A stretch of 63,827 nucleotides of DNA, filler included, from Reclinomonas americana ATCC 50394 (GCA_048213135.1; 9 parts of 8 records of this genome joined end to end with filler, not necessarily neighbours in it); one strand, 5' to 3'. Positions 3,455 through 61,849 are shown, counted from the first letter of the whole stretch. Notes: generated from the sequence alone by a model not told the origin. Made by a program: numbers and translations.

Positions 3455-6400
3455 ATGGTGCACTCACACACACTCTTTTCCCCCCGCCCCCTTCGGCCCC
3501 ACACTAACCTCTGTGACCTCCAGCGGTGTGCAGTACGCCTGCGCGGTGGCGGCTGCTGCACCTCGAGCAGCGTCGATGACGACCCGGGTCGACTCATTGG
3601 AGCCACCCGCCAGGCGCGACCCACCGAGCCTGCACGCCGTCTGGCTGCCAACCGTCTCATGAATGCAGCGCGTGTGCGCTCTCTGCTGCGTGAGTTGGAG
3701 TACACGATGCAGGCGGCCGAGTCACTCAAATCAATTTCTTCCGCTTCGTCGTCGTCGTCGCCGCCGCTAAACACTCGCGACCCGAACGACCTGGACGCCG
3801 TGTCGATGGTGTCAGGAGGCGACGCAGGTGAGGGAGCTTCGTTTGGACTGGGCGTCACCGAGGCCGATGTGACGCGGCGGCGAGCGGGAAGTGCGGGCAG
3901 TGCAGGCAGTGCAGGCAGCGGCAACCGCGCTTCGCTGCGTGAGCAATTTGCCGCGCAGAACAAGGCGCGCGGAGTGGCGGCTGAGTTGCAGCGCTCGTTG
4001 GAGGAGATTGTTGAGCTGGTGCGCGATATCGAGGAGGCACTGCTGATTGGCCTGTTGCCGACGGACCCGCTAGTGGCAGTGGGGGGTGGCGATCGCTCGG
4101 CGGCGAGTATGCGTGACTTGGTGACGCAGCTGTGTGCGCTGGTGCAACAACGGTGCGCGCGCGCATGTGTGTCTCTGTGTGTGTTTCCGTGCATACCCCT
4201 GACTCGGTTGTCGCTCGTAGCGTGTCGGTGCCGAATGTGCTTGGCGATGTGCACCGCTTCGTACTCTGCCGACTGGCCGCCCTGTTGCCGGATGTGGCAC
4301 TGCGAGCGTGCGCCGATCCGCATGTGCCTCTGCGCACACGGGCACAGCTGGAGACCACACTGTCGCAGATACACGCCGACTTGCGCGCCGGTTAGTCACG
4401 CCATTTCCTCACGCCCTCTCCCCTCTCACCTCTCCTCGTCTGTCTTCCACAGAGGGCCAGCGTGGCATCCGGGAATTCACGGCCGAGGCCGACATTGATG
4501 CCGCAGTGACGCTGTTGGCCAACTTGAAAGCCGACGGTGGTGCTTTGGCGCCCATCGTTCGTTTCGCCGTATTCGGTGACAATAATGACGCGGTGGCGGC
4601 GCGCACCGCAGCCGAGGAAGTGCAGGAACAGGTGTGTGTACTCTCTCTCTCTCTCTCACACACAGAAACTCACTGGAGAATGCGCAGGCCGAGTCATCGT
4701 GGTGGAGTCAGGTGGTGGTCATCAAGTACATGGGCCGGATTGTGCTGTCGCGACCCGATGCCGCTGCACAATTGGCTGCGCTGGTGGACATGCAGCTGGT
4801 ATGTGCCTCCACTCACATGCACTTGCGCATTAAAAAACTCACATCTCTTCACCCTGTGCTGCAGGCGGCACAGCGGTGGCGCTTCTCTCCGCATGTGCAC
4901 TACCACATGATCCCCCTCCTCCTGCGACTGGTGTTTGCCACGGACAACAACAGCGTTGCTGCGCAGGCCTTTTTCGGCATTGCATCGTCAGTGCGCGAGC
5001 AGGGTGAGTCCATTTCTCTGTCTCGCTCATGCTCATGGCGCGTTCTTCTCACCACGCCCACGCAACAGCACCGCTGCCGTCGCTGGCCACTTTGTGCTTC
5101 CACGGAGACTCCACGACGCGGATTGCGGCGCTGAATGCCTGTCAGCTCCTTGTTGGCCTGCAGCACGGACTACCGCCCGACTTGATTTCCCTCGGCGCCG
5201 CGTGTGTGGTGACACGAGCACGCAACACGGAGCGCGACGAGGCCGTTATACGAGCCGCTCTCATTGATACGCCGCGTTTCTTGTCTGTCTTCTGTCGTCG
5301 CATCACCACATTGAGTGGTGCGGCACGGAGAGCCATTATCGAGAACCCCGAGGGCGATCACGGGCGGTTCGAGCTTGGCTCGTTGGTGATGTTAGACCAG
5401 ATGCAGCAGGTGGCTGCTGTTCGCGGCACCGTGCCGATTTATGTGCCACCGATTGGTAGACGCGTGCTGTCGGAGCGCGATGCATCGCCCGCAGCACAGA
5501 TTGTCAACGACTTTTTGGCCTCCACCGACAAGGTGCGTGTGTGCGTGCGTGTGCACAATGTCTCGCCCTCTCTCGTCCAAGCCTTCACCATCCATGCGTC
5601 TCCTTCACATCGCTGCAGCTGCTTCTGATCTTGGGTGTGGTGGGGAGTGGAAAGACCACCCTCATTCAACGTCTGGTGCTGGAGCAGTGGAGCTCATGGC
5701 GTGCCGGTCGACCCATTCCCGTAGCTGTACAATTGGCGACGCTTTCGGCTGCCGATTTTGAACGCGGTCTCATGGAGACGATGCTGCTCCGTGAGGGGTT
5801 TTCTGAGTTGCAGGTCTGCGCGAGAATTCATGCGCGCATTTATGCCATTCTTCTTCCAACACTCTCGTGTTTCTGCGCGCAGATTTTGTCTATGAAGACG
5901 ACGCAGGTAATTGTTTGCTTGTCGTGCAATCTACGTGCTGCGGGATACTCACATGCTGCTGCGTGGGGTGTAGTGTTTCTCGCTGTTTTTGGATGGCTAC
6001 GATGAGCAGATTCACTCGCAGGCGAACTTATGGGAATCCTTCCGGCTGGCAGTTGCGCCACTCGACCACCTAGTTTTCCCTTGCTGTCTTCTGGTGGTTG
6101 TACTGATTGATTAACTGCGCACACAGGGCTGGCAAGTGCGCGTTGTTGTCACCTGCCGCACTGAACATCTGCGCCTCCTGGGTCGCCACTATGTCAAGGC
6201 CAGTTGTTTTCCGTGTCGCGTGATCTATGTTGTGCACCGCTCGTCTCACTGTTGCATGCAGATGTTTGTGGACCCGCTCGTCGCCAGCCGTCGCTCAGTG
6301 CGCAAGCTCTTTCTCAGTCGCTTCACATACGGACAAGTCGAGAATTTTTTGCGCCAGTGCGTTTGCCGAGCTTTCCTCGTTCCCCCGCCCCCCTGCTGAG

Positions 6401-17509: not shown

Positions 17510-18627
17510 ATGGCAAGCGCGGCCGCCTCCAGCCACGTGCGACGCAAGGGCCTCGCCAAGTGGCACGACTTGTATCAGAAGCGCACCACGCCGGTGTGTG
17601 TGTGAAAGAGAATGCAGATCACTCACTCTCACTCGATCGCTCACTCTCTCTCTCTCACACACACACAGTGGGACTCTGGTCGTCCAGCCTCACAGTTGGT
17701 CGACTACATTCGCCAGCACCCACTTCCTCCTGACAGCCAAGTGCTGGAGATTGGTGCGCGCTTCCTCACACAAGAATTTGACATGATCCATCAACCATCA
17801 TCATCAATCGCTGATCGATCGCTTCGTCAGGTTGTGGCACTGCCTCCACCTCACTGTACTTGGCCGACTGTGGATACCGCGTGGTGGCGTGCGATCTGTG
17901 TGAGGAACCACTGGAGGGAATGAGGTGAGTGGGAGTAATGACGATTCTCTCTTTGCCTTCTTCACTCGTGTCCGCGCGCGCGCAGGGAGCAAGCGGAGGC
18001 GTATGGCTTTGACAAGGTCCGCTTTCTCGTGGCCGATGTGATGATGTTGCCGGCGGGCGTCTCCTACGATACGGCTCCGTGGTACGAGTTGCGTACCTGA
18101 TTGTTGTATTGCACTGTACGTATTCTGGAGTTCGTGTCTCACCTTGGCGTGCAGTGGGATGACAGCGCAGGCGCAACGCACGTGGCCGTCGCCGCCGACC
18201 AGCGAGGGCCAGTTCGATATGATCTACGACTGCCAGTGCTACCACGTGCTGCGTCGCGAGTTTGATGAATACGAGGTGCAGTACATGCATCGCTTCTCTC
18301 CCACCGATATCATCGCACTGACTTGTGTGCGTCGGGCAGACCATTCGCCATCTGCACTCGCTGTTGCGACCCGACGGTATCTTCTTCTCGCTGACCGGAC
18401 GCACCGATGCCGAGTTCTCGCCAATGGAGGGCGACGATGAGGGTGCGGATGGCACGCCGGTGGTGGCTCGGCGCGAGTTGCTGCGCGAGTTTGTCGACAC
18501 GGGCCTGTTCGCGCTCGAGTCGCTCACCGAGTCGGTGTTTGACACCACGCCGGGGTACGCGAATCGCGCCGGTGGCGTGCCGCCTTGTTGGGTCGGCGTG
18601 TTCCGCAAGCTGCCCGCCGCCAAATGA
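17510..18627 (+). CDS. Class I SAM-dependent methyltransferase (TPMT/thiol-methyltransferase-like)
   Basis: Spliced PWDSGRP, motif I VLEIGCGT, VVACDL, FDMIYDCQCYH, LLRPDG. Confidence 0.8.
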
Positions 18628-18723: not shown

Positions 18724-20961
18724 CTACCTGGCACCAATCTCTGTGAGACCCCAGTCGACAGTCGTCGCCTCGTTGTGGGCGCAGTCGATGCCACAGAAAC
18801 CGCGACGGCCCTGCTGGATGCGGGCCAGATGCACCGCAGCGTCAAACACCTCGCGGAACTCGCCAGCGTCGACCTCGGTGTGCACTGGCGGGTCGACGGG
18901 CTTGAGGTCGGAGCGCACGTGGTGCTTGTCCTCGTGTACGTTGCGCCAGTTGAGGTACGTCTTGTGCGTCCATCGCGCCAAGTTGCGCATGGCCGTCTGC
19001 GTCCAAAAGTTCAACGGGAACAACTCCAGCACCACGGCGTTCTCCGGCATCCACAGCACGTGCGTCATGCCGGCTCCGTGCATGCCCACCAGCAGGTCGG
19101 TCTGCCGAGCCAGTAGCATCTGTTCGGCCAGCGTGATCTCGCCAAAGTCCACCTCGGTCACCACGGCGTGTGTGGTGGCCCGAATGATGCGCAGAATCTC
19201 CTCCTCGTTGGTGATGACGCGCGAGATGAACTGGCCCGGCTTGTAGTTGCGTCGCGAAAACGTGATGCGCAGCGGCGCGTCGGCTCGCACGTGATTGGCA
19301 TCCAGCAGCTTGAGACGGCGCAGCATGAAACGCACAAAGGCCTGCAGCACGGCGCTCTCCGCACACTCGGCCGGTCGCCACAAATCCTGCCAGATGAAGC
19401 TGGAGGGGGCGGGGATCGACAGCAGCACCTTCTTGAAGCACACGCGACCGGTGCCGTACGTCTTGACGGCGTCGGCAAGACGCAACACGGGACCGCCGGG
19501 CGACAGGTGTTGCCACAGCTCGAAGAAGTTGCCGTCGGGGTACTGCGCGAGGCGTGTCAGTCTCGCAGCAGCGAGCGGGGGGAGAGCAGTGGTCAAGTAG
19601 GAACGCACAGAATCCGCAATAATCACTTGCGGCTCGAGGAAATTGATGCCGGCCATCAGGTAGGCCATGTAGGCGTTGAGGAACTCGGCCATTTCTGCGC
19701 CACCACACCGACGTGAGCGCCACGACGTTGCAGCAGCAATACTCACTCCCACGCAACTGTGAAAGTAATTGTCGCCCTCCTCGCGAGTGACGAGCAGCAC
19801 CGGGTGCTCGACGGTTTCCGTGCACGTGTCGCCGAGCGGTTGCTTCGAGCCCGTGATGTAGTCCACTGAGCGCTCCAATTGAACCCACGTCCACTGCAGC
19901 AGACGCGCGCGCCGAATTGGCCACAGACACACTCTCACTCTCACAAAGAAAATACACCACGTTACCTTGGCCTCGCTCATCTGCGGCGACCACACACAGT
20001 TCAGCTCGACGCCCTTGCCGCCGCGCTGCAGTTTGCCAAAGTCAATGGTGGCATCCGACAAGTGGCAGAACGAGTCGACGCGTGGCCGCGCCGCCTGATA
20101 CACATCGTGACAGGTGAATCGCGAATGCAGGAAGCCACGTGGCTGCGAGCGCGGTGGCGTGCACAGCGCCCGCTTGTTGGACCACCACCGTCGCAAGAAC
20201 CCGAATCCAAGTCCCGCATCGCACGCCTCCTCGTGCTTCGTGACACCACCGACGCGTCGCGTGACCTCCAACGGCGACGACACCTCGCTAAAGTACGCAC
20301 TCACTCCATCGCCGGTGATATCCGTGTCGTCCGTGTCCAGCTCGACAACCGGCTCCTGCGGCTCCTCTTGCTGCTGCTGCTGCTGCATCTCCTCATCTGC
20401 TGCTTGCTCTTCCGCCTGCTGCTGTTGCTGTTGTTGCTGTTGCTGCAGCTCTTCCTCTTCTCTTCGCCGCGCAGCCTCTGCTTCCTGTTGCTGCACCTGC
20501 AGCGCCTTGTCCTCCTCAAACAGCCATGCATACTCCTTGCGCATTCTCCGATGCTCCATCTCCCTATCCTCCAGCGTCTCCGCCAACTGCGCAACCTCCA
20601 GCTCCAATCGATGCTACACACACAGGAGAAGAGTAAGCACACCCAGTCTCTCTGCAACTGTTGCTTGCATCCACGAAACAATCGTCGCATCGGCTTCGTC
20701 GTATAATGAGCGATACCCACCCGCCGCCAACTTCTCAAACACCGCCGACGCAGAGGCCGCAGACGCGCCTCCACGTCGCTCACCACCACCACCAGGCGAC
20801 ACAGCAACCAAGCCTCCAGCAGGGCGTCTGCGCCACACCACCATCAACAGCAGCAACACAGTGCACACCACTGCAGCGGCCACCACAAGCTGTCGCCGAG
20901 TCGACGACACCCATAGACGCCGGCATCGAAGCACCAAGCGACGCGCAAGCAGTGACACCAT
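18724..20961 (-). CDS. Glycosyltransferase family 61 (EOGT-like), type II membrane protein
   Basis: N-terminal TM, Q/E-rich stem, NYFH..AEFLNAY, VCFKKVLL, LLVGMHGAGMTHVLW, VLELFP. Confidence 0.82.
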
Positions 20962-21163: not shown

Positions 21164-22594
21164 ATGTCGTTGCAGAGGGTTCGCGTTCTTCGCATGTGCG
21201 TCTTCGCCACTGGTGGCACTCTCTGTGCGGTGTTTGTGCTGTCGCTGCTGGCATCGCTGCTGCGAATGGCGTCGGTCGGTGCACCGCGCGCGAATGTCTC
21301 CACCGAGGAGTCGCGAGCGGCGTGGGCGCGCGCTGGTGGTGTGCAAGATGAGGCGTTGTTGGAGCGCATGGGCGTCGATCTGGCGGAGCTGACCAAGTCG
21401 TGGCAGGAGCAGAGAGTCGCAGGTGCGTGCGTGTGTGCGACACGTGTGACAGTTGACTGATCGCGCTTGCAACGCACAGGGACGATGTCGTGGCGAGGTG
21501 TGTGGTTTGGTGACGTTCTCTCTTTCTATGTGCGTGTCCTCATTTGATGATGCAGAGTTCAAGCGGCGATACAATCCATCGTTTGCCGATCGCACCGTGC
21601 GACGGCGATCGCCATCGGAGGCGCCGGTGCGAGTCTTTGATGGGTTCATGTTCAACGATGAGCTCGATCTGCTGGAGATACGCTTGCATGAGCTGGAGAA
21701 TGTCGTCGATGTGCACATTCTCGTCGAGTCGCCGTACACGCTGCGCAACGCGTCGAAACCGCTGCATTTCATGGAGAACCGGGAGCGCTTTGCGGCGTTT
21801 GCGCACAAGATCGTGCATGTGGTGGTGGACACGCCGGCCCCCGACTTTCAGTTGCGATCGCTCACTCCTTACCCTCGTTTTCCCTCTCTCCCTCATCGCT
21901 CCACCCGCGCAGGTACTGGGAGAACGAGGTGCTGTTCCGTGATGCCATCGGGCAGCGTGGCTTTGCTCGCACCGACATTCGCGGCGACGATCTGGTGCTC
22001 GTCAGCGATGTCGATGAGATCCCCGACGCGCGCGTCGTGCAGTTCCTCAAGCATCACGTGGGCTACCCGCCCATGTTGCGATTGCGCATGAAATGGGTGC
22101 TGCTGACGTTCGCGTGGACCACCGAGAAGCTGTGGGAGTCGGCGGCGGTGATCCGTGCAGGCGAGGTCTTCAAGCGAAATAACGCCACCAACGAAGTGCG
22201 GCGAGTGGGACTCGATTTGGAGGACCAGGGCAAGGTCGGCGATGACAGCCAGTGGGCCGGCTGGCACGCCTCGTGGTGTGTGCCGCTGATGGGCATTCGC
22301 CACAAGCTGCAACGATTTGCGCACATTGAGCTGGACACGCCGGAGAACAATGATGTGACGCGCTTTGTGGGCATGCGCCAGACGGGCACCTGGTTCAACG
22401 GTGTGCGACACGGGCGCAAGGCGACGGCCAAGGACCCCATGTTTGCGCCACTGTACGCCATGGCGCATCCGGAGAAGTTTGGCTATCTGCTGGACCCGTA
22501 CTCATCACGAGGCGATCCCATGCTCACTGCCGAGCTCAAGAGGATAGAAGAGGAGAAGCAGAAAGCCGCGCGAGAGCGTGACCGTCAAGGATAA
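21164..22594 (+). CDS. Glycosyltransferase family 17 (beta-1,4-GlcNAc transferase, MGAT3-like)
   Basis: TM anchor; FNDELDLLEIRLHEL..VDVHILVES, SDVDEIP, GWHASWC. Confidence 0.87.
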
Positions 22595-37332: not shown

Positions 37333-37957
37333 TGGCGTTGTCGACAAGGGCAACAGCACTACGAGACGCAACAGGCACAGGGAAGCGAGGTGAGATGACA
37401 CCGCACTTGTTGATGCGGCCAGTCAGCTCGACGACAACTGCGAAGAGAGGCGAGCATGAGTACAGGCTGCTCATCAGGTGGCATACACACACAAAGACGA
37501 AACTCTTGCCAGCGCGGTGATCATCGACCACAGTGATCTGTGACGAGAGATTGTTGAGTCAGCACACACCCTCTCTTGAAGTCATGATGAGTTGAATACG
37601 CGCACTACAATCGCACTCACCTCACCCAGGTAGCCTGTTTGCGACGCAAGGCAGAAGAGGACAGGGGCAAAGGTGAGTGGCAGGGAGCAAATGCATGGCG
37701 CACACACACGCACACACACACACACGAGCGCGCGCGCACTCACCGTGCTTCTGCATGACCTGGAGGAATCGCAGCACCACCTTTGACGAGGGGCGCAGCA
37801 GCACCTGTCGCTTACCACGCTTCTCAGCGTTGTAGATCGACTGATAATGACAATGATAATCATGAGTGACTCCCCTTCTCGCACAAGAGCACAACAGCGC
37901 AGCAACAAAGTGTGCGTTTACCTTCAATGCGTCGTGCAAGACAGAGGCGCGGACCAT
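37333..37957 (-). CDS. RPS15A: 40S ribosomal protein S15a (uS8); 3' part lost in gap
   Basis: Spliced [66 protein letters not shown]; includes a 14-nt micro-exon at 37621-37634. Confidence 0.93.
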
Positions 37958-44647: not shown

Positions 44648-47600
44648 ATGTCGCGCAAGTCGGGCTCCTCGTCGTCCGCACTGAGGTTGGTGACGCACAC
44701 ACGCAAGCACACATGCACATGCGCATGACTCTTCATTCACCCTCCCTCTCCACGCACACACACAGCACCTCCAGCTCGCTCGATTTGTCAACAGTGACGC
44801 GATTATCTGTGGATCGCAGTGGAGCAGGGGGCAGTGCAGGATCGTCGCCACGACTTGCGCTGCTGACGGCGGCCGCAGCGGAGGAGTCACTGCGCGGGAT
44901 TCTGCCACGCAGCATGGTGATGCATGGAGTGGATGCGCAACAGGCGACACTGCGCGGAGTCACCAGTGTGCGCTCACGCACCGATCCGCTGCACATGGAT
45001 GTGTTGAATGAGGTGCATCGCATCAGTTGCAGTTGTCATGAATGCATCTCCCCATTTTTTGTTATTGGCTCATCACGCATGGCGTTGTGTGCAGGGCGTG
45101 TCGGTGGCCAAGGCCAGGTTCTGGCTCTCGTCTCTCTCTCTCGTTTCATGTGGTCACTCTTGTCGCTGACCTCCATCGCGCGTGTGTAGTGGCACTCATT
45201 CGAACGCGGAATCGAAGCACTGGGAGTATGTGCTGCAGATCCAGTCGTCGCCTGAATCGTCGGTGGTGGTCGAGCAGCAGCCGGCAGTGTCGCCACCGGC
45301 GCGCTCTGCCTCGCAGGAGGAGTTGCAGTTGACGGCGCTGTTGCGAGAGACGCAGGCAGATGACTCGATTGAGAAGGTGACGTCCACCATTTCGCCTCCT
45401 GCTGCTAGTGGTTGCTGATGCTTTTGCTGCGTGCAGCGGGAGCGTGCGTTTTCGATTGCCATGCTTCTCGCCTACACACACCCGATGATGGAGTCGCTGC
45501 GCACGGGGAAGCCACCGTCGCATTCACCGCACGGCGGCGGCTTTGTGAGTTCGCTCTTTGGCGGTCTGTGGAAGGCCATTACGTTTCTGCCGCGCGTCAC
45601 ATACAATGCCAGCACGGCGGCTCTGGGTGCCATCGGCAATGTGGTACTCCCGTCCCAGATCGACCGCAACCGCGTGTTGCAGCCGGAGCGTTGAGTGTGC
45701 AGTAGTGGGGGGAAGGGTGGTTGCTTTTGTGCTTCAATTCCATTTCCCGTTTCACGATTCTTTCCGTCGCATATCTTTCTTCCCTTTCTGCTCACCTCTC
45801 TCGCCACAGAGGTCGACACCTTCAAGTTCCTGGTCGCTCTGCAGCTGGATCAATTCGAGAGCCGCCTGCTGTCACCCTCGCTGGAGGAGTCCGGTGGAGG
45901 CATGATCACCCTGAATCGGGACCTGGAGCTCCCCGAACTGACCATGTACGACATTATCTTTACGACTGGCAAGCGCATGGTCAAGACACTCGGTACGTGC
46001 AATGCCTGTGTCGCCGCCGTCACATTGGACATCTCACGCCGCGCATTAGTATTCGAGTGCCCGGAGCCGACCACGGCGGCTATCCTTCTTGATCTCGTCA
46101 CCTCGAGCATGGAGCCAGCGCTGACTCGTCACGCACTCGATGGCGATCGTTGTGTAGTTGCCTCACTTGTGCACTTTCCTAAAAATAATCTCCTCACTCG
46201 GATCTGCATGCAGTTGGTGACGCCACTTCCGCGTACGTCATGTCGCTGTTTGTGCGCTTGTTGGATCAGACGCTGGCACGAGGCATGAAGAAGGACGTGC
46301 CAAAGGCTGTCAGGGCCGCCGGTCGAGTGATTCTCATGGATTTGCTGCTGCGGTTCGCCTCTTTTGTCGTCAAGCGCGTGCGTGGCACAGCCGTGATTCA
46401 CCAAATGGCTACGTGCATCACAGGCATGCACTCAAGATTGACGACAAGCGAGCTCGGTCGCTGCGCATGAGTGCGCGCACGTGTGCCAATCCCGAGGTGA
46501 ACACTGTGTGGTGATCCTTTTGCGTGCGTTGCGATCTCCCTCACTTGTATCTTCCTGCCCGCGCCAGCACTTTCTGGTTCAACTAAAGAACAACCTGCAA
46601 GACGTGCAACAGGAGCGACCGGCGTTTGCCAGTCAATTTTTGGTGAGCGACTCTTGATTTTCCTTCCCTATGAAGTTCCGGCTGATGCGTCTCATGTCAT
46701 GGCAGTCTGCGGAGGAAATGCGCGAGGAGACGCTGGCCACGGCGCGGCGGTACGGCGCGCACATTAATTTCATTGAAAAGAACTATCTCGACCCGAAGGA
46801 TGCAGTTGCGTGGAGATAAAACACACAGACGTGTCGGTGATGCTGACATGTAAAGTGCACTCAGATGGGCGACGCTGCCGGCTTGCTGTACATCAAGGGT
46901 GGAGTACACGCAGTGTGTTGTTTCTGTACGCCAGCCGTCTCACCTTCGCGCTCGCAGTCATTTGTGCCAACAAGTTGGTGCCGAAGAACATGTTTTCTCG
47001 TTGCGCACTCCACCGCTCCTGTCTCTGGTGCTGTTGCAAAGGTGTCTTACAGTAGCACAGGGACGAGCGATCCGTATGTGCTGGTCACGCTTGGCGACGC
47101 CGAGTTTCGCACCAAGACGCGCAAAGGGACGCTGGATCCGGTGTGGGACGAGGAGACTGTGCTGTTGCGTGCACGGCGACCTGCTTGTTGTTCTGTATGG
47201 CGTCCATCTCACTCGCATGCTGACACAGGCGAGTGAAGAGCATGGACGACACGCTGTACTTGTGTGTTTATGATTGGGATCGGTTGGGTCGGGATGAATT
47301 CGAGGGCGATCTGTCACTCACGGTCTGTGTGTGTCTGCCTCTCCTCCGCTTCTCTCTCTGCCCACCGTACTGATGTGAGTGGCGCAGGTGGCGGAGATTG
47401 TGGAGCTGCAAGAGGAGCATGGTGGATGCATCGACAATCTGTTTAACCTCAGACCAAAGGCCTCATCGCACAACAAGAATCGGTGTGTGTCTGCGCTTCT
47501 TTCGAGTGCTCTCACAAGCACGAGTCTTATCATCTACTACATGCACAGTGGTACCATCCATCTGCAAATCGCTTTTGGTACGTAGTTGCTGTTCTTTTTG

Positions 47601-50600
47601 CACAGCGCTGAAAACCAATCGTCGCTTGCAGAGCGTGTACAGCTGCAGAACAACACGATGTTGGCCACGCGTGCTGGCGAAGCCGAAGAGATCCTACGGT
47701 GATCCTCGCATTCGCCGCAGCTGCTGTTCTTCCACTCTCACCCAGCACTCACGCTCTCCGAAAAACAGAGTTCTCACCCGTGGCATCGTTCAGCAATCGG
47801 CGCACGTGCAGCTACCGCGTGTGTGGGGTCCACGTGAATACGGCCTGCTCTTTGACAATCTCGAACTACGCTTCAACTTGCTCCCCGTGCGTCCTTCTTT
47901 GCAATGTCTCGGCAGGAAACCCATCCATTCACACGCCACTGCCGCTGCTGCAGTACTCCCGCTACGCCGCTGCGATCGACGTGCTCAACGAACTCGCCAC
48001 TCGCGGCGACCAGATCGCGCTGCAGACACCGGTGCTCACGGCAGCCGATGCGCTGATTTCGGATTTCCGCGAGGAGACGCGTCGCGTGAGTGTCTTGCCG
48101 ACCCAGTCCAAGGTTCTGCGTTCATTCTTCCAGTTGTAGCAGCAGGATGTGCGGATGTCTGATGGTGTGCGCCTCTCGCTTGTTAGGTGGTCAAGTTTGT
48201 TCGTGGCCTGGACGCCTTTGCTGTGCGCTTCCTCGTTCCCAAGTGTGCCGCCTATCATGTTGCGTCACGACGGTAATTTTTCGTCGTACTCTTCATTCAC
48301 ACCGAGTGTGCCTCGCAGGACACGTTTCCCGCGAACACACCACCCGGAGCACTGCGGAACGCCCTGGCTGTGATACAAAACACGTTGGATCTCGACGAAT
48401 TCCAGGCCTACTACGAGGAAACCATGGAGGCGTACAAGAATTTTGACTTGGGCGCCCTGTTGGAGGCTGCACTGGTGGCCGAGACGCAGAAGCGTGCGCG
48501 GCAATGGCTCGGTCAGGCCAAGCGCCTGCCCGAGGTGGCCAGCAGCCTGACGCTGTCGGCCATGGACGATGAATCGCCGTCGCCGGCATATGCACGACGT
48601 GCGCCGGCAGCGTCACCGCCGTCCACGCCACAGAGTCCGGCCGTGGCGCTGAGTGTGAGTGGACTGCTGATCGCCATTGAGTCGGTGACGGGTGGAACGC
48701 CGCCTGTGCAGGCCACAGTCAATCAAGCGACGGGAGGCAGTCCGACCTCGGGTGCTATTTACACTGGCTACCAGCTGTGCGCTCTGGCTCTCGGTGCTCG
48801 TGCCGCCGTTGAGACAGATGTGAACAAGTTCAGTTTTGAGTTTCCGACGTTGCGTGACGAAAGTGCCAGCGAACGCCTGGAAGTGTGTGCCCGGTAGACG
48901 TGCTCATCGCCTGATCACAGTGGTCGCCGCCTGGAGGAAATCACCGCCGAAGTGTACTATCGGACACTGGCGGAGAATGTGCTACGCGCCATTCCCCCCG
49001 AGGTGCGTGCGCGTGTGTCTTGCCGTGAGTGGCTTGACGCCAGAATTCAATTGCGATCTCGCAGTTGTCCCCCGAGGTGTACGATCCCACCTTCATCTCG
49101 CTGTACACGGTGATGCGAGAGTTGCATGAGACGTGGCGAGCGTTGCTGGGAGACAAGTTGTGTGCCGTCAGCCGCTGCTTGTTGCTGTTGGTCTCGTTCT
49201 CACTCACACGTCGCGAGACAGACTATCGTTCCTCCCCATTGGTGAGGTCTTCAAGCCGTATTTGGAGCAGTGGGCGTTGCATGCCATGGGTCTCCTCGAT
49301 GTGTGTCAGCAGCGGGCGATTGCGCAAGACGATGTTGCGTCTGCCGCTCTTTGCCAGTGACTGGGGGGCGTTCACTGAGCATGTCATGTGTGTGTGTGTA
49401 CGTGCACAGTTCAAGCCCATCCAACTGCCGGCCATTATGCACTCGTTGGGCGTGGTGCATGTGTTCGAGTTTGCCAACATGACCTTCTCGAAGTGCTTGG
49501 AGATCATGGACAAGAACGACCCGTCACTGGTCAACACCATTTTCAATGTCTCCAATGTTGCGGAAGGGAGAGCGTATATTCTTATCGCCTTTGTTCCTCA
49601 CTCTGCGATAATAGGCCGTTACGAGCAACGCCGCACGGTACGCTGCCAAACTGGAGGAGCTGTTTGGTGAGGAGCTGAGGGACCACGAGGTTGTGATGCA
49701 ACACATCAAGCACGTGAGCAACACGGCGCGTGACGATGTGATGCTCATCTCTCAGAGGGTGCGTCGTATGATGAGTTTACTGTCGAGGCTGTTGTCGTTC
49801 ACTCACTTTTTCGCCTTCGTCGACCTGTCTCGCAGATGTGCATCATTCTTAATGTTGCGTTCTTCACACTCCTTGCCGAGTCCCTCATTGACGCCTGCTC
49901 ACTTGTGCTTTCTGCAGAATATTGATGCGACGGCATTGCAGTTGCGTGCATGGAGGAATGCGATCCGTGTCGCAGGAAGGACGCTCACTCGAATGAATGC
50001 AGATTGAGCGATTTCTTTGAGGCGCACGCTCACGACACTGGCACGGATGAGATGCACGCGCATCTCGCCGACCAAATTCAGGTGCGCGGCGGCATCAATG
50101 TCCGTGTTTTTTCTTTCACTGCAAGGCTTACCAACTGACTGTTCCGTAGCGATCGTTGACACGCATGCGGTCGTCCATGTACACCGCCCTCACCAGTGTG
50201 GTTTGTGTATCTGTGCCATTCGACTCTGCGCACTGTGTGACCCACTGTTGCCATCGCGTAGCTGACACGGATTCTCGTTCCTCTGCTGCGTGTGACCGTC
50301 GGTGTGGAGTTGAAGCCTGATGGCGAGAACCTGGTCCGCGGGTTGGCACCGAAGATGTGGAGTGCGGTGTGTGCCGTGCGGCAGCAGAAGAAAGGTGCGC
50401 CTCAGTCGCTGCTGCTGCTCTCGCGGAGAGGATATTCATAATCACTCCCCCTCCCTCCCTCGTTGCCTCTTTTTGCTAGGCCGCGTGGACGACGCCATGA
50501 CCTTCCTGCGACCCATGTTCTCCTACCTGGAGCAACAGTGGGACGTCATGTGCGACTACTGCTACTCGAACGTGTTCCTTTCGTTCATGGTGGCCCTGTA

Positions 50601-51197
50601 CGGTACCATCTTGTCGGCGGTGGAAGACATGCTGTTTGAGCCGAGCTCGCGGCCGCTGGAGTTCACCCAGCTGAATTGCATCTTTAGCATTCTGCATGTG
50701 CGTCTTTTTCTTTTTCCACTTCAGTTCCCACCCCGCCGCCCTGTGTGTTCATCTGGCTGCTGCGACACAGGCCACCGACACGTTCATGTTCGACGGAGAG
50801 ACCGCTCCAGAGTTTGTCGAGTTGCGCGAGTGGATGCAGGAGCGCGTGCAGATGCTGCAGGCCTCCGTGTTGCCGCTGTACTCGGCGCCGCTGGTGGAGG
50901 TCACTGAGGCCTTCCGGCGGGCTGGAACCAACATCGAACGACAAGTTTCGTCTTGTGTACGCTGTCACCTTTCGTCGCTCACACAACAACAACAACAACC
51001 TGACAACCGCTGCCACGCAGATCATTTTCCGACTGCTGCAATCGCGCAAGAAGGATCGCGAAGCAGAGCGATTCTGCCAGGAGGTAATCACCAAGCAGCC
51101 ACATCTTTTCGACGACAGCTTCAGGCCGGTGGTCGCAGCGCTGCGAGCGGCGTCGGCTGCCGCCCACCGCTCCGAGCCATCACCCCGGAGAAGATAA
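44648..51197 (+). CDS. C2 + MUN/MHD domain protein (Munc13/BAIAP3-like), many exons
   Basis: C2: GTSDPYVLV..RTKTRKGTLDPVWDE..VYDWDRLGRDEFEG. MHD1-like: AIAQDDFKP..HSLGVVHVF, CIILNNID. MHD2-like: PMFSYLEQQ, IIFRLLQSRKKDREAERF. Confidence 0.75.
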
Positions 51198-51302: not shown

Positions 51303-52780
51303 TCACATCTCGTCCTCCTCCAGCACGTGAATAATGTCATTTAGTTCCTGTGCGGCGCGTCGTCAGTCACAATGGAGCTTTTGTTGGGGAAGAAAAGAAA
51401 GAAAGCACACAACTTCTCGTGCTGCCGCCAGCTCGTTCTCCAAGTTGGCAATGGTGGCGTCGCGGCGCACCAGCTGTCGCTCGCGGTGCTCCACAAGGCG
51501 TACGAGTCGGCGCACCTCGGTCGCCAGCTGAATCTTGGTGAATCGCGAGAGCAGCACATTGACTTCCACCCGGCTGCTAAACTCCAGTCCAACAGAGTTC
51601 CACATGGCACGCGATGATGAAGCTGGTGGACGAGCAGCAACAACAACAAACGTGAGCTCCCTGGATAGGACCATCCTCCAGCACGAGGGGAAAACAATAA
51701 ACTAACCAGTGTCCGAGGTCGCCAATGACGACGCAGTGTCTGTGTTGTGGGCGCGCGCAGTGAGAATGTGGCAAGAGATATACAGACGAAAGGATAAACA
51801 AGGCCACAAACCCGAGGTCTCCGAGCCAGTGCCCGGCTCATCATCCTCTGACATCTCGGCCGACGAGGGGACTAAGCAATGTGCACACTTGCTGGTGAGA
51901 CAAGCAGGCAACGCGGAGGTGCACGCAAAAAAGTGCGGCACGCAACATCCATTGGAGCGAGCGACATCCAGCAGCTCCTCCGTGTCCAGCGATCCGTGTC
52001 GCTTGCCACCACGTGGATCGTCGTCGGCCAGTTGCGCATGGGTTTTGCCCGCCTTGCCGGTCATCATGTGACCATTCACCGGCGACTGCGCAGAGCCACT
52101 CGAGTTGCCACCGACGCGCACGAGTGCCGGCACCTTCGGTCGCTCACGTCCCGGCTCGTCGACGCCCCCATTCTGCGTCGCACGGTCGCGATCGGACACG
52201 GACTCGCCCGACAACGCAGTCGTGTCTCCGTCCACTGGCTCGCTTTCGTGTGAGGACTCGGGCTCGGCATGGCTTGGCGCCGGGCCGACGCGCACCACGT
52301 TGACCATGCGTCCCTGACGATTGACAATGCGCGCCACGGTCGGATCCACCGTCAACGTTCCGTCCACGCCGACCTGTGCACGAGAGAAATGAGAACACGC
52401 AAAGTTCTCCCTCTTGCCAGCCATTGCCGCTCACCAAGTACTCGTACTGGCCAGGTGTCAGCAGGGTCGTCAGCGTGTAGGTTCCATCGTCCTGCTTGGC
52501 CATGGGCAGCGGAGTCCATCGAGTAAACGAGCCGCACACCATCACACGATCCAGGGCGCCACCACCGTGCGTCCAGGTGAACGTGACAGGCTCCCGAGCA
52601 GTGTCGGCGGCAGTGGTAGCACCCAGCTCGCCACTCCTGTTGTCATCGACTCTCCGTGAGCCAACATCGCAAAACAAAGAGAGAAGACAGAAAAAGAGAG
52701 AGTCAAGACGCACTGTGCTGTCAGTGTCGCTGTCGCCTGGGCGCCACCAGCGGCGTCGGTGGACGACGATGGGGTTACTG
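51303..52780 (-). CDS. CBM48 (AMPK-beta-type glycogen-binding) domain + C-terminal coiled-coil protein; 5' truncated
   Basis: VTFTW..VMVCGSFTRWTPLPM..LTPGQYEY..VDG..VDP..NVV; last exon ELNDIIHVLEEDEM*. Confidence 0.65.
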
Positions 52781-52813: not shown

Positions 52814-52926
52814 CGCGTACGGTAGGNNNNNNNNNNNNNNNNNNNNNNNNNNNNNNNNNNNNNNNNNNNNTTAATTAATTAANNNNNNNNNNNNNNNNNN
52901 NNNNNNNNNNNNNNNNNNNNNNNNNN

Positions 52927-54867
52927 GCGCGAACGCAGCACCGCAATCAGCCGCTGCTCCACCAGCTCCACAAACTTGGAGTCTGTGCGTGCCATGGTCA
53001 GCGCCTCCAGCGAGTAGAGGGCGGGGATCTGCGACCAGCGCAATGACAGGTGAATATCAGGAGAAGGAGAACAATTCACATGGGAAACCAACCTCACGCC
53101 AGGCACCCGACGGACGATCGGCGGGAATGCCAAAGGCCTCGGCCAGACGACGATCGCGCTCCATTTTCTCAATCTCGGCCTTGGTTTCTGCAACATCGAA
53201 TCGTTGATGTGAGCGAGTGGGGGGATATGAGGACAACAGCAAGGGGAGGAGAGAGCGCAACTCTGCGGAATAATGCCCTTGGCCAGGCCGTGGCGACGAT
53301 CCGGGGGCAGTTCGCGCAGCTCGTTCTCGGAAAACAGGCGGGACCACTGCGGTCCGGAACCGACATTGGAGGAGGGCGCCTGCAACTGTGGCAGAGGTAA
53401 GGAACTGCACAAGAGAAAAGTGAGAAACAAGGAAAGAGATGCGACTCACCGGCGGCAACGGTCGACCGTCGCCATCCAGATCCGGCCAGCTCTCCTGTCG
53501 ACCAGCGAAGCCTACACAAAACACACAAAAATTGAGATGCTTTGTTTTTCTTGTCATCTTCGCCTCCCTCACGCAACTGTCATCATCGTGTCGGGGGTAT
53601 GACGACTCGCGATCCATCTCCTCGAGCAGAGTCGGACCGGAGAGCGGGGGGAAGGCCGATGAATCGAGCGGAGCAGCTGCGGCCGCCGCCGATGCTGCCT
53701 CTTGCTGGAGTTGGCGTTGTTGGGCGCGGGCACGCTGCTCAATCAGGGAGAGCGGGCGTCCGTCGTCTTCGTCGCCTCCACGACCGCCACGCTTTCCACG
53801 CTTGCCACGACCGTCACTGCAATGGATGGGGAAGGGGAAGACGGGTCAATACCAAGCAAGTATTCACACAGAGTGCGCCACATGCAGCACTCACCGTCGA
53901 CCATCGCCATCATCGCCGGCTCCAGCCGCGGAGGAGGAGGAGGAGGTGGTGTGGAACACCGGGCCGCTGGCAGAGGCGAGTGCCACCGAGTCGCTGCCGG
54001 CCACTCCTCGCACCGAGCTGTTGAGCAGCTCGTCGGCCAAGCGCTGTCGCTCCCACTTGGACAGGCCCTTGGAGTGCTTCTCCAACTGCACAAGGAAATG
54101 GTGAGCCAGTGTTCTGTTTTTTTCTTGATGTACCAGGTGCGTGACGCAACAAAGTGCTCCTTGAGTTGGAACTCGGTGGTAAACACGATAAACTTGGTCT
54201 GTCGGCACTCCTCGTGAGAGCACGGGAAGTGATCTTCGCCGAAATGCACCTCGAGGTCCTCGTAGGTGTTCTGCGCGTCAGGCGTGTGTGTAAGCAGAGA
54301 GTGCGTCACACCAANNNNNNNNNNNNNNNNNNNNNNNNNNNNNNNNNNNNNNNNNNNNTTAATTAATTAANNNNNNNNNNNNNNNNNNNNNNNNNNNNNN
54401 NNNNNNNNNNNNNNAATCGCAAACGAACAGTCGACGGCGGTGGCTTGACTGTGTACGAGTGCGGTGGCAGGTACGTCGGTGCGGCTGCCGAGGGACCAAC
54501 ACTGCTGGCAGAGGACGACTGCGCACTGACGCTGTCGCCACCAGCAGACGACGATCTGCAATGTCACAATTGGTTGAGTTGCGCGCCAGATGACCAAAAT
54601 CTGACTCTCACACACGCACACACGCACCCTTTCTCGTGCATGAGCCGATCGTGGTGAAGCTGCAGTCGGTGCACCGACGACTCCACTCGTCGGTGAACGT
54701 GCTTGAGTGCGGCGCTGTCGCGTCGCACGTACTCGGGGTCATCCTCTTGTGCCTGAGTGCGTGTGTGTGAGAGAGAGCACTCAAAGTCAGTGATCGAGAA
54801 GAAAGAGAGAGTTGTGTGCGTGTGTGTAAGTGCGCATAGAGTAAGTAACTCGTTGCTGGCGCGACAT
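52927..54867 (-). CDS. ZNF598/Hel2-like C2H2 zinc-finger protein fragment(s)
   Basis: YEDLEVHFGEDHFPCSHEECRQTKFIVFTTEFQLKEH..H; interrupted by a linker gap; RING domain not seen. Confidence 0.5.
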
Positions 54868-54970: not shown

Positions 54971-56711
54971 ATGCAATCCACGGACGCGCTTTCGCCCATC
55001 GACGTTGGTCTCTTCTTGGACCGGAGGGAGGGATGGGAGGCCGAATGCCGCCGCGCGTTTGAGCAGATTGCACAGACGGGTGTCCTGATTCTCAAGGTTT
55101 GTGAGGCGATCGTGCATGCAGAGAGACAGTGATACACACACAGAGAGAGGGGGATATGTGTGCGCAACACGCAGAGAAGAAAGCGAAGGAGAACGAGAGA
55201 GAGAGAACGAGAGAGTTTTTGTGTGTGAGTTGCATGGTGGATCATGGCGACTGTGCGCGCGCTCTCTCTCCTTTCACACGCACATGCACACATCTACGCC
55301 CCTGTATGCCTCTGATCCACCTCACTGTCGCGCATATGCGCACACACTCCTCTCTTCCAAGAAAGAAGAAGATGCACTGTGCAAGTGTGCGCATCTTTTT
55401 CGCTCCTCTGCTGATGCAGATCGCCCATTGTTGTTTTTCTTTTTGTGCCATAGGATCCGCGTGTGAGCGAGGAAGACAACACGCGCTTTGTGTCAATGAT
55501 GGAGCAGTACTATGAGCAACCCGACGAGGTCAAGATGCGTGACGTGTTCCCCGATATCGCCTATCAAGTCGGTGCCACACCATCGTACACCGAGGTACAT
55601 CATGCAGTTGTGCACTTTCTGTTGCTCTTTTCTCATTGTGTTCTCTGTGTTTGCAAAAAAAGGTTGCGCGCGATCACACGGCCCGTTTTGCCGACTTTCC
55701 GCCAGAACATCAGCCGCACCCGTATTCGGGAGCCGATCCCAAGTGGCGTTTCTTCTGGCGCATTGGCGAGCGACCGGAGCACACCAGCTTCTATGAGCTC
55801 AACTGCCCGCCGGTAGTGCCTGCTGGTGCGCGTAGTGTGTGTGCATGTGTGCATACTTTGCGCTTCTCATGTGTGCTGTGATTAGCCATTCCGAACTGGA
55901 CGGAGCTCATGGATCTGTGGGGCCAGCGCATGCTCGACGCTGTGTACGCCTGCTCGCGTATGATTGCGGTTGGCGGCGGTCTGGAGGAGGATGCGATTGT
56001 GAAGCTGTTGGACAAGGGTCCACATTTGTTGGCGCCCACGGGAGGTTGCGTGTGTATTTGTATTGGTTGCACCGCACTCTCCGCTTTTGCTTACACGCAA
56101 AATTCGTGGCGCAGCTGATATGGCCAAGTGCAAGGACGGCGAGGTGATTGCGTCGGTGCATCAGGATCTGAATCTGCTCACGATTCAGTTGCGTGTGAGA
56201 TTCATTCACTCTGCCTGCGAAACCAAATGGACTCACACATCTGCTTCTCGATCTCGACAGCGGTCGGAGTCGATACCCTGCGCTCTTTGCATGGCTCCGC
56301 GATGGAACCAAGGTGCAGGTCAAGGTCCCGGAGGGCTGCCTCCTCGTGCAGGCTGCAATGCAGCTGGAGCACTTGACTGGTGCGCGCACACACACACACG
56401 CAAATCGCCCTTCTGATCGACGGCCGCACTCACCCACTGTCGATCCTACTACGTATGCAGGTGGTGCCATTGAGGCGGGATTCCACGAAGTGGTGTTCTT
56501 TGACGCCACTGCCCGTGCACTGGAGCGTGCCCAGGCCGAAGGCCGCTCCACGTGGCGTGTGTCGTCCACCCTGTTCTCACACGTGGCGTCGGATTTGTGG
56601 CTCGAGCCTATTGGTCCGTTCCGTACCGAGGCCGCCCTGGCCAAGTACCCACGAATTGAGGCTGGGCGCTTTGTCGAGGAAGAACTCAAGGCCATTTCAT
56701 TGCACAAGTAA
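54971..56711 (+). CDS. 2-oxoglutarate/Fe(II)-dependent oxygenase (IPNS-like fold)
   Basis: YQVGATP, DPKWRFFWRIG, HLLAPTG, HxD in VHQDLNLLTIHG, distal His in GFHEVV, WRVSSTLFSH. Confidence 0.85.
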
Positions 56712-57069
56712 CCGGGTAGAGTGAGACTCTTGTTTTTTTGCGTGTGTGTTTGCTTTTTGGGGGGAGGAGGGGAAGGGTAGGCGGGGTATGCNNNNNNNNN
56801 NNNNNNNNNNNNNNNNNNNNNNNNNNNNNNNNNNNTTAATTAATTAANNNNNNNNNNNNNNNNNNNNNNNNNNNNNNNNNNNNNNNNNNNNAGTCAGCCA
56901 TTCGCAGCGCATGGTCAATCACCGTAAATAGCGGCTCTGCGCTCACCACACAGCGCCACGTGGCGCACATGCACCTCTTGCGTTGTTTGCAGCGGATCTG
57001 AAGAAACGTCGACCTTTCCCACGAAGCACAAGTAGTCTTCCTGCCTTTAAAGTTGCAGGTAGGCAGAAA

Positions 57070-60000: not shown

Positions 60001-61849
60001 CGGCGTCCTTTGTGCCACCGTCACCGTCACCCGATTCGCGACCGCAATACGAAGTCAATGCCAGCCCCGACACGCAGCGATGGCGCATGTTCCCGTTTGC
60101 ACCGTACGCACCGGACGAGCAGCAGAATCCCTACCTGAAAGCTGGTGTGTCTGCAGCATTATGACGCGCACAATCGTGTTACTCACTCTGCGCAGGTGAC
60201 GTGATCATGCTGTACCACAAGGAGCTGGAGGGATACTTGACTGTGGCGGCCGTCGGCCAGAATCGTGCGTCTCTTCTCTCCGTTTCCCTCAAGACAGGGT
60301 TGACAGGGACTGACTTGCGTGCCACACGACGCAGCTGCCGAGAGCCGCATCAGCATCAAGATTCCCGGCAGCGATGAGGACACGAGTGTCAATTTCATGT
60401 GGGAGGTGGAGATGAAGGACGCCACCGTCGGCGGTCTGTGCTCGTGGAACAAAGAGTTCCGGCTGAAGCACCTGGCCTCGGGCATGTATCTGTGCGGCAG
60501 TTTTGCCGAACCCGACGACGACCCCGCGGCGTTGCCGAATGCGGTGGCCACCGCAGCTGCCAACGCCGGTCGTGGAAAGGGCATTTTGAGCAAGACGGGT
60601 TTGTTCTGCGTGTGTATGTGTACTGGAGAACTGTGCTGATGGATCTCGGTGCAGATGCGCGTGCGCTGTTCAAGCGGGCTGTGCGTATGATCCAAGTCGG
60701 CACTCGCGCCTTCCGCCGTGAGTCGCATGTGCAGATCTGCTGTTGCAACAACACAGCTCATGGTGAATTTTTCGTGTGCGCGCAGATATGCGGTCTCTCC
60801 GCTCCATGCAAACGCATCGCGTGTTTCTGAGCCCCGATCGAATGCACGCCGGCTGCATCTTCATGCTGACCTCGGTGTTCTACTTTGTTTCGTTCTTCGC
60901 CGCCACTCGCTCCGTTTCACGGTCGCTTGCACGCAGGCTCACCACTGTGTTTCTCAGGGCAAGGGCAGCATCCCGTTGCAGAGCTACGTCCGAGTGCACC
61001 ACAAGTCGACGAACGCCTTCCTGGCGTCACAGAGCCCCGAGAACGCCTCCGGCACGGCCGTGACCGACGTCCCGCAGTCCCCCAAGGCCATTGCCATTAT
61101 TCCGCGGTTCAACCCGCTGCACGTGGCCAACAAGGCTGATCCCGAGTCGGCCAACATTTACGTTGCGCGACTCGCCTGCAATACTTATGTTGCGCGGTGA
61201 AATGGGCTCACACACGGAGCCTTTTCGTACACAGGTGTCGCTGTCGGACGAACCCGTCGACGAGGATGCGTTTGCGATTCGACCGTGTCCTCAGGAGATG
61301 GTGGCCGACCTCATCTTTGTCAAGTCGCTGCACAAGCCGCTGTCGCAGTTTGTCGAACTGGTGCGTGTCGTCGACAGGAATCTCTTGTGTTCCTCTCCTC
61401 CCCATGTACTGATTCGTGCATGCAGATGACGCGCAACGACATCTACACGTCGGCGCACGCCGTGCCGACTGTGTGGGCGCTGAAACAGCTGATTCGCTTC
61501 TGCACCGACTCAGACAATCCCGATCCCATGACGCGCGAGGGTGTTCCGTACCCGGCACGCCAGAAAATGCTCCGCGACACCGAGGTCCGCTGCTCGCGTC
61601 TTGCTCCGCACGGAATCACTGCTGACTGTGTTCTGTTCTTTTTTGCAACAGATGCTGCGACTGTGCCGCAACATGCTGGAAGCTCCGTTCGGTGATGGCA
61701 CGCTCACGGCGCAGCTGCTGCAGAGCCCAGACTTTGCGCCCATGCGGACCACGTTGGCGATGGTGTACCGCCTCATCAAGCAGGCCTGCAAGGGCAATCA
61801 GCGGAATCGCCTGTACATGTCGCAGTGGGCCGAGTTCTTCCAGAAGCAG
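57070..61849 (+). CDS. ITPR: Inositol 1,4,5-trisphosphate receptor-like channel, N-terminal part (suppressor, MIR and RIH domains)
   Basis: LHYGDHISL, VKYGDVIQLQHVRTG, YEVNAS, LKAGDVIMLYHKE, WEVE, FRLKHLASGMYL, EDAFAI, RQKMLRD, YRLIKQACKGN. Start uncertain; pore region not in the contig. Confidence 0.85.

Follow-up and report, generated by a model that had tools for sequence, protein, structure and literature searches.

A second class of intron starts, with the donor motif displaced by one base (GTTGCG type), is abundant in a 64-kb stretch of eukaryotic DNA

The stretch of DNA analysed here (Reclinomonas americana ATCC 50394; 63,827 bases, the whole of which is called the window in the following) is eukaryotic, has a G+C content of about 57% and is densely filled with genes that carry short introns, and the subject of this analysis is a group of 5' splice sites (donors) in these genes that start with GTTGCG or a close variant of it. 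The window contains eight identical blocks of the form N44-TTAATTAATTAA-N44, which are artificial six-frame-stop linkers and lie at positions 13115-13214, 22965-23064, 33186-33285, 41092-41191, 52827-52926, 54315-54414, 56792-56891 and 61913-62012; besides these, there are five plain N runs. Because of the linker blocks, the window has to be regarded as a pseudo-scaffold of joined contigs, and genes on the two sides of a block are not necessarily adjacent in the genome. Pfam matches identified WD40/NACHT-like genes, an EF-hand gene, a Sir2-ankyrin gene, GT61 and GT17 glycosyltransferase genes, BRCA2, a HAD hydrolase gene, an LRR gene, an alanine racemase gene, a queuosine-salvage gene, an IP3-receptor-like gene, a C2-domain gene with a weak MUN-domain match and a carbohydrate-binding/zinc-finger gene. 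The C2-domain gene (44914-51197, +) is called Munc13-like here solely after its C2 match and the weak MUN match. A gene for ribosomal protein uS8 (S15a) was added by manual reading and an isopenicillin-N-synthase-like dioxygenase gene by homologue search. The best protein matches to the proteins of the window are 59-64% identical.

The first-pass annotation of the window had listed 22 GTT donor motifs that resemble the usual donor moved by one base and had claimed that they are abundant and follow exons that do not end in G. All 22 motifs are present in the sequence, and 21 of them stand after a non-G base, 56045 being the exception. In order to avoid circularity, we wrote our own exon/intron gene finder based on dynamic programming, in which a flat donor score treats every GT alike. 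Its coding model is a three-periodic Markov model that was seeded from Pfam-positive reading frames and then self-trained, and the other terms are a learned acceptor matrix, a bonus for the branch motif CT[ACG]A[CT] and a length prior. Donors with G at +5 were defined as class I, and donors with T at +3 and G at +6 but no G at +5 as class II; sites on the minus strand are given by the position of G+1. The flat-parse census, which covered N-free introns of 40-130 nucleotides (nt) in gene models scoring at least 15, comprised 129 introns with 63 class I donors, 26 class II donors and 40 donors of neither class, many of the latter being arbitrary in-phase choices of the flat model. When a two-component donor motif model was used as donor score (mixture parse), 127 introns were obtained, with 69 class I, 32 class II and 26 other donors, and GTTGCG was the start of 22 introns. 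The modelled introns have a median length near 65 nt, and their branch motif mostly lies 15-25 nt before CAG.

Twelve of the 22 listed sites were used by the flat parse, which displaced five of them to nearby GTs, and 17 were used by the mixture parse. The five that are in neither parse (28726, 37372, 37503, 39904 and 42903) belong to unmodelled genes or to an in-frame intron and were inspected manually. The parses added nine further GTTGCG donors, at 18088, 47000, 48259, 48849 and 49941 on the plus strand and at 54150, 53577, 53261 and 40425 on the minus strand. Altogether, both ends are visible for 36 candidate class II introns, three of which are weak members (9634, 45118 and 18088); in addition, there is the donor at 37372, whose intron enters an N gap. 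This total of 37 class II donors is about 1.7 times larger than the 22 listed before. GTTGCG is the commonest donor hexamer of the flat parse (18 of 129), followed by GTGAGT and GTGCGT with nine each, and donors of the GTT(G/N)CG type make up about 20-25% of the modelled introns in the window. The earlier claim that they are real and frequent is thus borne out.

One might suspect that the GTT sites lie by chance next to the true donors, or that they result from TG/CG-rich introns and from our own gene models, and it is true that the flat finder takes arbitrary in-phase GTs in some introns and that 40 of its 129 donors fall into neither class. We therefore set the donors against several kinds of background. 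GTTGCG occurs 75 times on both strands compared to 67.5 occurrences expected from a first-order Markov model, so that the motif is not simply common, and 18-22 of these occurrences are donors. The look-alikes GTTGCT (51 occurrences), GTTGCA (66), GTTGCC (44) and GTGGCG (132) supply 0-1 donors each. The proposed excess of G at +6 over G at +5 among GTT donors was likewise found within the window, where G+6 without G+5 occurs in 26 of 44 GTT donors versus 252 of 1377 non-donor GTT sites (p=4.6e-9) and versus 22 of 141 GTT sites inside introns (p=5e-8). A test that is free of gene models gave a similar picture: a branch motif plus YAG follows at 50-100 nt after 23 of 75 GTTGCG sites versus 1083 of 8333 (13%) of all GT sites (p=7.5e-5), with values of 9-11% for the controls GTTGCA, GTTGCC and GTTGCT and of 8% for the reverse complement of GTTGCG. 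When the flat-parse donors were given to an unsupervised two-component motif model, the components that emerged were G|GTGnG (weight 0.74) and GTTGCGT (weight 0.26), with a gain in log-likelihood of 91 units, compared to 29.5 units for the highest of 20 column-shuffled controls. These enrichments, with p-values from 1e-5 to 1e-13, the failure of GTTGCA, GTTGCC and GTTGCT to act as donors, and the seven junctions that homologues fix to the residue, with three decisive split codons (see below), argue against an artefact, which we consider highly improbable. We have high confidence that the GTT donors are real, that they form a distinct class and that cleavage takes place at the GT.

The seven class II junctions at 36047, 47164, 37503, 39473, 40425, 56045 and 56188 are exact by homology, and four further ones at 21851, 28726, 39904 and 50945 are approximate. 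At three of the exact junctions a split codon gives the conserved residue solely with GT...AG cleavage, namely H at 39473, I at 37503 and H at 56188. A boundary one base to the right, with an exon ending in G and an intron starting with TT, was rejected, as it would give Q for H at 39473 and 56188 and S for I at 37503. In the alanine racemase gene, the class II intron gat|GTTACGCT (GTTACG; 36047..36104, +) lies in a continuous match to PF01168, with profile position 84 at the exon end and position 85 at the start of the next exon. This gene (35630-36992, +) is an intron-bearing alanine racemase gene with the Pfam N- and C-terminal domains in a eukaryote, and it may be a bacterial acquisition that has gained introns since. 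The class II intron gct|GTTGCGTG (47164..47228, +) is situated inside the C2 domain of the Munc13-like gene, where positions 54-59 of the PF00168 profile are filled exactly by six residues, one of which comes from the split codon. In the uS8 gene, the class II intron aga|GTTTCGTC (GTTTCG; 37438..37503, -) interrupts a sequence to which PDB uS8 chains align without gaps as ...DDHRSGK59 | I60 (split codon A|TT) | V61. The uS8 gene (37313-37985, -) consists of four tiny exons and then breaks off: a GTTGCG donor (37367..37372, -) follows the exon that ends in ...ISPRFPVP, its intron enters a 20-N gap (37313-37332), and the C-terminal exons lie outside the window.

The queuosine-salvage gene was aligned with six homologues (P0001-P0006; 47-62% identity). 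Its class II intron cca|GTTGCGAG (39396..39473, -) yields an exact VVGELY-H-RF, in which the split codon CA|T gives an H that is common to five of the six homologues; the rival in-phase donor at 39479 loses two residues. The class II intron gat|GTTGCGTA (40360..40425, -) joins SLDVD|LVRRLG, which aligns gap-free with SLDIDEVRRFG and similar sequences of the homologues. A third class II intron in this alignment, aca|GTTGCGAC (87 nt, in frame; 39818..39904, -), is placed by homologues, although its exact ends are not fixed: if it is retained, there are 29 extra residues, which are present in none of the five homologues that cover the region. The class II introns at 39818-39904 and 37438-37503 (-) both have a length divisible by three and no in-frame stop, such that retention adds 29 and 22 residues, respectively, and one of the two sits within an open frame of 508 codons. 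A metagenome scan with the queuosine-salvage alignment led to four loci, of which three have no introns in the match and one looks degraded, and none is informative on donors. P0006, a metagenome-derived homologue, carries two inserts that are unique to it, one starting with VR... and both ending with ...Q, and that are not at the intron positions of the window; they resemble introns that were left unspliced in a related organism's gene and read through by a gene caller.

For the dioxygenase gene, 12 homologues picked from 120 listed ones were aligned. The class II intron tca|GTTGCGTG (56188..56260, +) splits DLNLLTI-H-GRSRYP, and its split codon CA|C gives an H that is invariant in all 12 homologues. 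Further upstream, the class II intron gag|GTTGCGTG (56045..56114, +) is the sole verified case with G at -1; GPHLLAPTG|A|DMAK is gap-free against the 12 homologues, and the donor at 56018 that the flat model had chosen loses nine conserved residues. The same gene has an intron at 55595-55662 (+) whose donor GTACATCA has no G at +5 or +6 but G at -1, and PSYTE|VARDH aligns gap-free with the 12 homologues. Since this donor is backed by homologues, some donors outside both classes must be real.

Among the approximate junctions, the class II intron tca|GTTGCGAT of the GT17 gene (21851..21912, +) shows continuity of PF04724 within two positions (147, then 150). The class II intron gat|GTTGCGTT of the BRCA2 gene (28726..28793, +) is anchored by its downstream exon, which begins at a W aligned to residue 215 of the rat BRCA2 chain, and the frames fit; the upstream exon (24 amino acids) gave no Pfam or PDB match. 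The class II intron caa|GTTTCGTC of the Munc13-like gene (GTTTCG; 50945..51020, +) is spanned by a BLASTP alignment between P0007 and the spliced model (34% identity, E=5e-22), with a one-residue gap three residues before the junction. A homologue search with the 176-residue exon of the Munc13-like gene gave no match, and an exhaustive search with its 72-residue exon gave two weak matches, of which P0007 alone was useful. Because there are so few homologues, most of the 14 class II junctions of this gene are derived from gene modelling together with the one check in the C2 domain. As for the conserved motifs that, according to the first-pass annotation, are restored by cleavage at the shifted GT, TI-H-GRS and GK-I-VVEL hold against homologues and GANAKHTTDD-WVKN holds for its downstream half only, whereas homologue searches found no homologues for the CIILN-NID and AQDD-FKP junctions.

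The remaining members of class II come from the parses or from manual reading. The other class II introns of the Munc13-like gene, all on the plus strand, were found in both parses at 45690..45809 (agc|GTTGAGTG, 120 nt), 46149..46213 (atc|GTTGTGTA), 46805..46864 (gca|GTTGCGTG), 47000..47060 (ctc|GTTGCGCA, before the C2-domain exon), 48259..48318 (cat|GTTGCGTC), 48849..48920 (gac|GTTGCGTG), 49557..49614 (aat|GTTGCGGA, TAG acceptor) and 49941..50002 (gca|GTTGCGTG), as well as, with low confidence and no homology, at 45118..45189 (cag|GTTCTGGC, G at -1). The mixture parse added 49157..49221 (caa|GTTGTGTG), for which the flat parse chose the in-phase GT at 49160, 49334..49409 (gat|GTTGCGTC) and 49854..49917 (aat|GTTGCGTT). 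The gene model includes two micro-exons on the plus strand, one of 18 nt (49836-49853; MCIILN) and one of 23 nt (49918-49940), with a GTTGCG donor after each, at 49854 and 49941.

Elsewhere on the plus strand, both parses agree on the class II introns at 6052..6126 (gca|GTTGCGCC...CAG), at 18088..18154 (cga|GTTGCGTA, in a gene model that has no homology support), at 34604..34667 (cca|GTTGCGAT, LRR gene) and, in the IP3-receptor-like gene, at 60887..60957 (ttt|GTTTCGTT) and 61162..61234 (tac|GTTGCGCG), where PDB searches with the flanking exons gave nothing usable; a low-confidence and doubtful intron at 9634..9679 (cga|GTTTCGGT, 46 nt, AAG acceptor) appears in the mixture parse only. Those of the minus strand that are in both parses are located at 19695..19757 (aca|GTTGCGTG, GT61 glycosyltransferase gene, with the Pfam GT61 match in the downstream exon), 20614..20679 (att|GTTTCGTG, TAG acceptor), 53188..53261 (aga|GTTGCGCT), 53512..53577 (aca|GTTGCGTG, TAG acceptor) and 54086..54150 (ttt|GTTGCGTC, after a zinc-finger exon at whose end the PF23230 match stops). 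On the same strand, the mixture parse gave 51348..51413 (gaa|GTTGTGTG), and manual reading alone gave a candidate first intron of a gene at 42795..42903 (gga|GTTGCGTC, 109 nt).

In order to describe the motif itself, base frequencies were compared between the classes. Positions +4 to +8 of class II (G.81, C.84, G 1.0, T.66, G.44) mirror positions +3 to +7 of class I (G.71, C.46, G 1.0, T.68, G.43), which agrees with the one-base displacement of the usual motif that had been proposed; the value of 1.0 for G at +6 in class II and at +5 in class I follows from the class definitions. The minor variants can be paired in the same way, GTTGTG, GTTTCG, GTTACG and GTTGAG with GTGTGT, GTTCGT, GTACGT and GTGAGT, respectively. 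In the mixture parse, GC occupies the two variable positions (+4,+5 in class II and +3,+4 in class I) of 22 of 32 class II and 23 of 69 class I donors (p=0.001), and GA those of one of 32 and 20 of 69, respectively (p=0.003); the flat parse gave GC in 18 of 26 versus 14 of 63 and GA in one of 26 versus 14 of 63. Class II is stricter in sequence than class I.

The claimed link between class II and exons that do not end in G was confirmed in both parses. G stands at -1 in two of 26 class II donors versus 39 of 63 G+5 donors in the flat parse (p=1.5e-6), and in two of 32 versus 57 of 69 in the mixture parse (p=9e-14). The base at -1 of the 32 class II donors is A in 15, T in 10, C in five and G in two cases; compared to the composition of exons, A is enriched over.18 (p=2e-4) and G is depleted below.32 (p=5e-4; binomial tests). 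Class I donors that have T at +3 as well as G at +5 (GTTTGT, GTTCGT, GTTAGT, GTTGGC) mostly retain G at -1. Therefore, it is the displaced G, and not the T, that accompanies the non-G exon end.

Apart from their 5' ends, the two classes have much in common. All 36 class II candidates with both ends visible have GT...AG ends, of which 30 are CAG, five TAG and one AAG. The median intron length is 68 nt in class I and 66 nt in class II, which is no significant difference in either parse (Mann-Whitney p=0.13, mixture; p=0.36, flat). The acceptor is CAG in 61 of 69 class I and 27 of 32 class II introns, and a CT[ACG]A[CT] string stands at most 45 nt before it in 49 of 69 and 23 of 32 introns, respectively, with the same CTCAC/CTGAC motifs. 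Judged by these features, class II introns are ordinary U2-type GT-AG introns with an unusual 5' end. A U12-type origin was rejected: [AG]TATCCTT strings occur three times in the window (28382+, 50435- and 44145-), and none of them is at any of the 36 class II donors. It could also be that one mobile, introner-like family spread recently and passed on the same odd 5' end, which would fit the identical 7-mer starts and the uneven distribution among genes. However, an all-against-all comparison of intron interiors (blastn-short) gave low-complexity and microsatellite matches only and no class II family, and lengths and 3' signals are the same as those of other introns, so that such a family is very unlikely. 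Class II might also have arisen from class I through a change of G+1 to T plus a slide of one base; this was set aside by reasoning alone, as the acceptor cannot slide to restore the frame.

How the displaced motif might be read is a question of pairing with U1 small nuclear RNA (snRNA). We propose that class II sites would first be recognised by the 5' end of U1 in a register that is shifted by one nucleotide. Intron G+1 would then lie opposite U1 C9, in place of exon G-1, U+2 would be mismatched with U1 C8, and UGCGU at +3 to +7 would pair where UGCGU at +2 to +6 normally pairs; U6 and U5 would then set cleavage at GU. The host would be expected to have a U1 with G opposite the C at +5 (ACGYAC-type 5' end) or a second U1 variant. 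Duplexes were modelled for the standard U1 5' end, taken from Tan et al. 2016 (PMC4856993), and for altered ends. Class I pairs with standard U1 at a mean of -6.6 kcal/mol, and 52 of its 69 sites have their optimum in the canonical register. If the U1 end is changed to ACGUAC, class II reaches a mean of -5.2 kcal/mol, and more sites have their optimum in the shifted register (12 of 32) than in any other (bulged: 5). For a hypothetical end of ACGCAC, the class II mean is -7.0 kcal/mol, with 17 of 32 optima shifted and two bulged. Since standard U1 binds class II weakly in any register, and since C at +5 is near-obligatory and A there is scarce, which standard U1 does not predict, a simple shift of the human type would need a changed or additional U1. 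On the modelling, a co-evolved or second U1 in the host is plausible.

The same motif can be drawn with a bulge, in which U1 pairs normally with G+1 and U+2, U+3 (or U+2) loops out, and GCGU at +4 to +7 pairs as +3 to +6 does otherwise. Indeed, GT-T-GCGT is GTGCGT plus one T, a bulge at +3 (or +2) is known for human sites according to Tan et al. 2016 (PMC4856993), and depending on the U1 assumed the bulged register is the modelled optimum in 2-5 of 32 sites. However, the shifted optimum is more frequent under every U1 variant modelled, and with a bulge G-1 should stay favoured, yet it is the rarest base (2 of 32 versus 57 of 69) and lies below the G content of exons. A shift is favoured over a bulge because G-1 is nearly absent, while a bulge would leave C9 free for it. 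This depletion is the main evidence that discriminates between the two, although it is indirect, and would favour the shift; we regard the bulged register as unlikely.

Several points weigh against the shifted register. With standard U1, the class II mean is -1.8 kcal/mol, most sites being near 0, and the shifted register is optimal in three of 32 sites. Pairing with U10 alone does not predict the preference at -1 (A > T > C > G), as G could wobble-pair yet is rarest and T is common; neither the shifted nor the bulged drawing nor one with a second U1 fully explains this order. Positions -2 and -3 of class I are little constrained, which leaves no exon-side pattern that could be compared between the classes. 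An Rfam scan of the window yielded nothing at gathering score and, at E<=1, five weak matches that resemble microRNAs or small nucleolar RNAs, with no snRNA (no U1, no U6) among them. Class II is unevenly spread, with 14 of 31 introns in the Munc13-like gene versus two of 32 in the 2-13 kb WD40/NACHT/EF-hand region (2132-13016, +; p=8e-4 in a Fisher test made post hoc, p=0.04 in a chi-square test over eight gene models), for which intron age and expression level are candidate causes. The census, furthermore, leans partly on our own gene models, with 26-40 donors in neither class, some of which are surely mis-called, and the data come from one 64-kb window in which several contigs are stitched together.

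Instead of a shifted U1, a dedicated second recogniser might act beside the ordinary U1, namely a U1 paralogue, another RNA or a protein that is fully complementary to GUUGCGU. The greater uniformity of class II (GC in 22 of 32 versus 23 of 69, almost no GA), the clean separation of the two motifs and the uneven spread among genes would agree with this, and standard and modified U1 variants are both mentioned for Physarum (bioRxiv 10.1101/2022.06.08.495308). On the other hand, no snRNA was found in the window, and a single U1 that has to offset a mismatch would equally lead to stricter conservation. We consider a dedicated recogniser quite unlikely, although a second dedicated U1 variant would explain the data as well as a changed U1. 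Returning to the shifted register, the statement as a whole, that a second abundant 5' splice site, (A/T)|GTTGCGT, exists beside the usual G|GTGCGT and is read in a U1 register shifted by one base, has in our view an even chance of being right on the sequence evidence. The wider proposal is more tentative and falls somewhat short of that: the spliceosome may routinely use two registers of U1 on the 5' splice site, about three quarters canonical and about one quarter one base off, by means of a GC-rich co-evolved U1 or of two paralogues. From the interpretation given in the first-pass annotation, the class, the displaced motif and the link to the exon end have stood up, and the shifted pairing and the variant snRNAs are what we infer from them.

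The data suggest that splicing in these genes makes routine use of two alignments at the intron start. So far, 5' splice sites read in a shifted or bulged register are known only as a rare exception in humans (1.5%, PMC4856993). If the proposal is true, flexibility of register would be able to become a main mode of intron recognition, and this would be the first known genome with a noncanonical register as a major selected class. It would also make a testable prediction for the sequence of the host U1, and perhaps U6, and provide a natural system in which the choice of the cleavage site is uncoupled from the position of U1 binding. For annotation, it means that gene finders with a single G+5 donor matrix would mis-call roughly a quarter of the introns here. 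As a separate observation, the window also contains, at 585-1805 and 1994-3214 (+), a tandem pair of intron-free WD40 reading frames with seven repeats and 406 codons each, beside very intron-rich genes.

The closest known counterparts are the atypical human 5' splice sites. According to PMC4856993, noncanonical registers of all validated types together account for 1.5% of 201,541 human 5' splice sites; a U1 register shifted by one is described for atypical sites by Roca and Krainer 2009, and a bulge at +3 (or +2) by Roca et al. 2012, both as cited in Tan et al. 2016 (PMC4856993). Like the human shifted sites, those of the window have a GT donor that suits U1 poorly in the normal register and would suit it well after a displacement of one base, G being at +6 and U at +7; they are cleaved at GU, and the exon ends in A, as in the human test oligonucleotide ACA|GUCAAGUAUA (PMC4856993). 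Unlike them, the class makes up 20-25% of the modelled introns, includes the commonest hexamer and has the core GCG instead of the human AAG, and its pairing is what we infer here. With the human bulged sites it shares that GT-T-GCGT can be drawn with a bulge, but G-1 is strongly avoided in the window.

The nearest evolutionary parallel comes from Archamoebae, for which donor consensus sequences that depart from GUAAGU are described together with co-evolved U1 ends, with ACAAAC and GUUUGU in Entamoeba and ACGUAC and GUGCGC in Mastigamoeba balamuthi (bioRxiv 10.1101/2022.06.08.495308). The departure of the donor consensus from GUAAGU is common to both systems, being accompanied by a matched U1 there, and the GUGCGC of Mastigamoeba is near the main donor of the window, GTGCGT/GTGCGC. 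However, the Archamoebae are described as having one donor consensus per genome, and that text has no mention of a shift, a bulge, a register or GUUG, whereas two registers are proposed for the window. In the copepod Eurytemora affinis, GA and GG donors occur in about 12% of introns (PMC5714493); as in the window, a donor type that is rare elsewhere is common in one lineage and would be likely to mislead gene prediction, but there the GT itself is altered, whereas in the window GT is kept and the downstream core is displaced. No report of an abundant GTTGCG-type or shifted donor class was found in the literature, the coverage of which was incomplete, such that an earlier description may exist. 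What is known is the rare shifted or bulged recognition of splice sites in humans, and what appears to be new is the abundance of one such type of site in this window.

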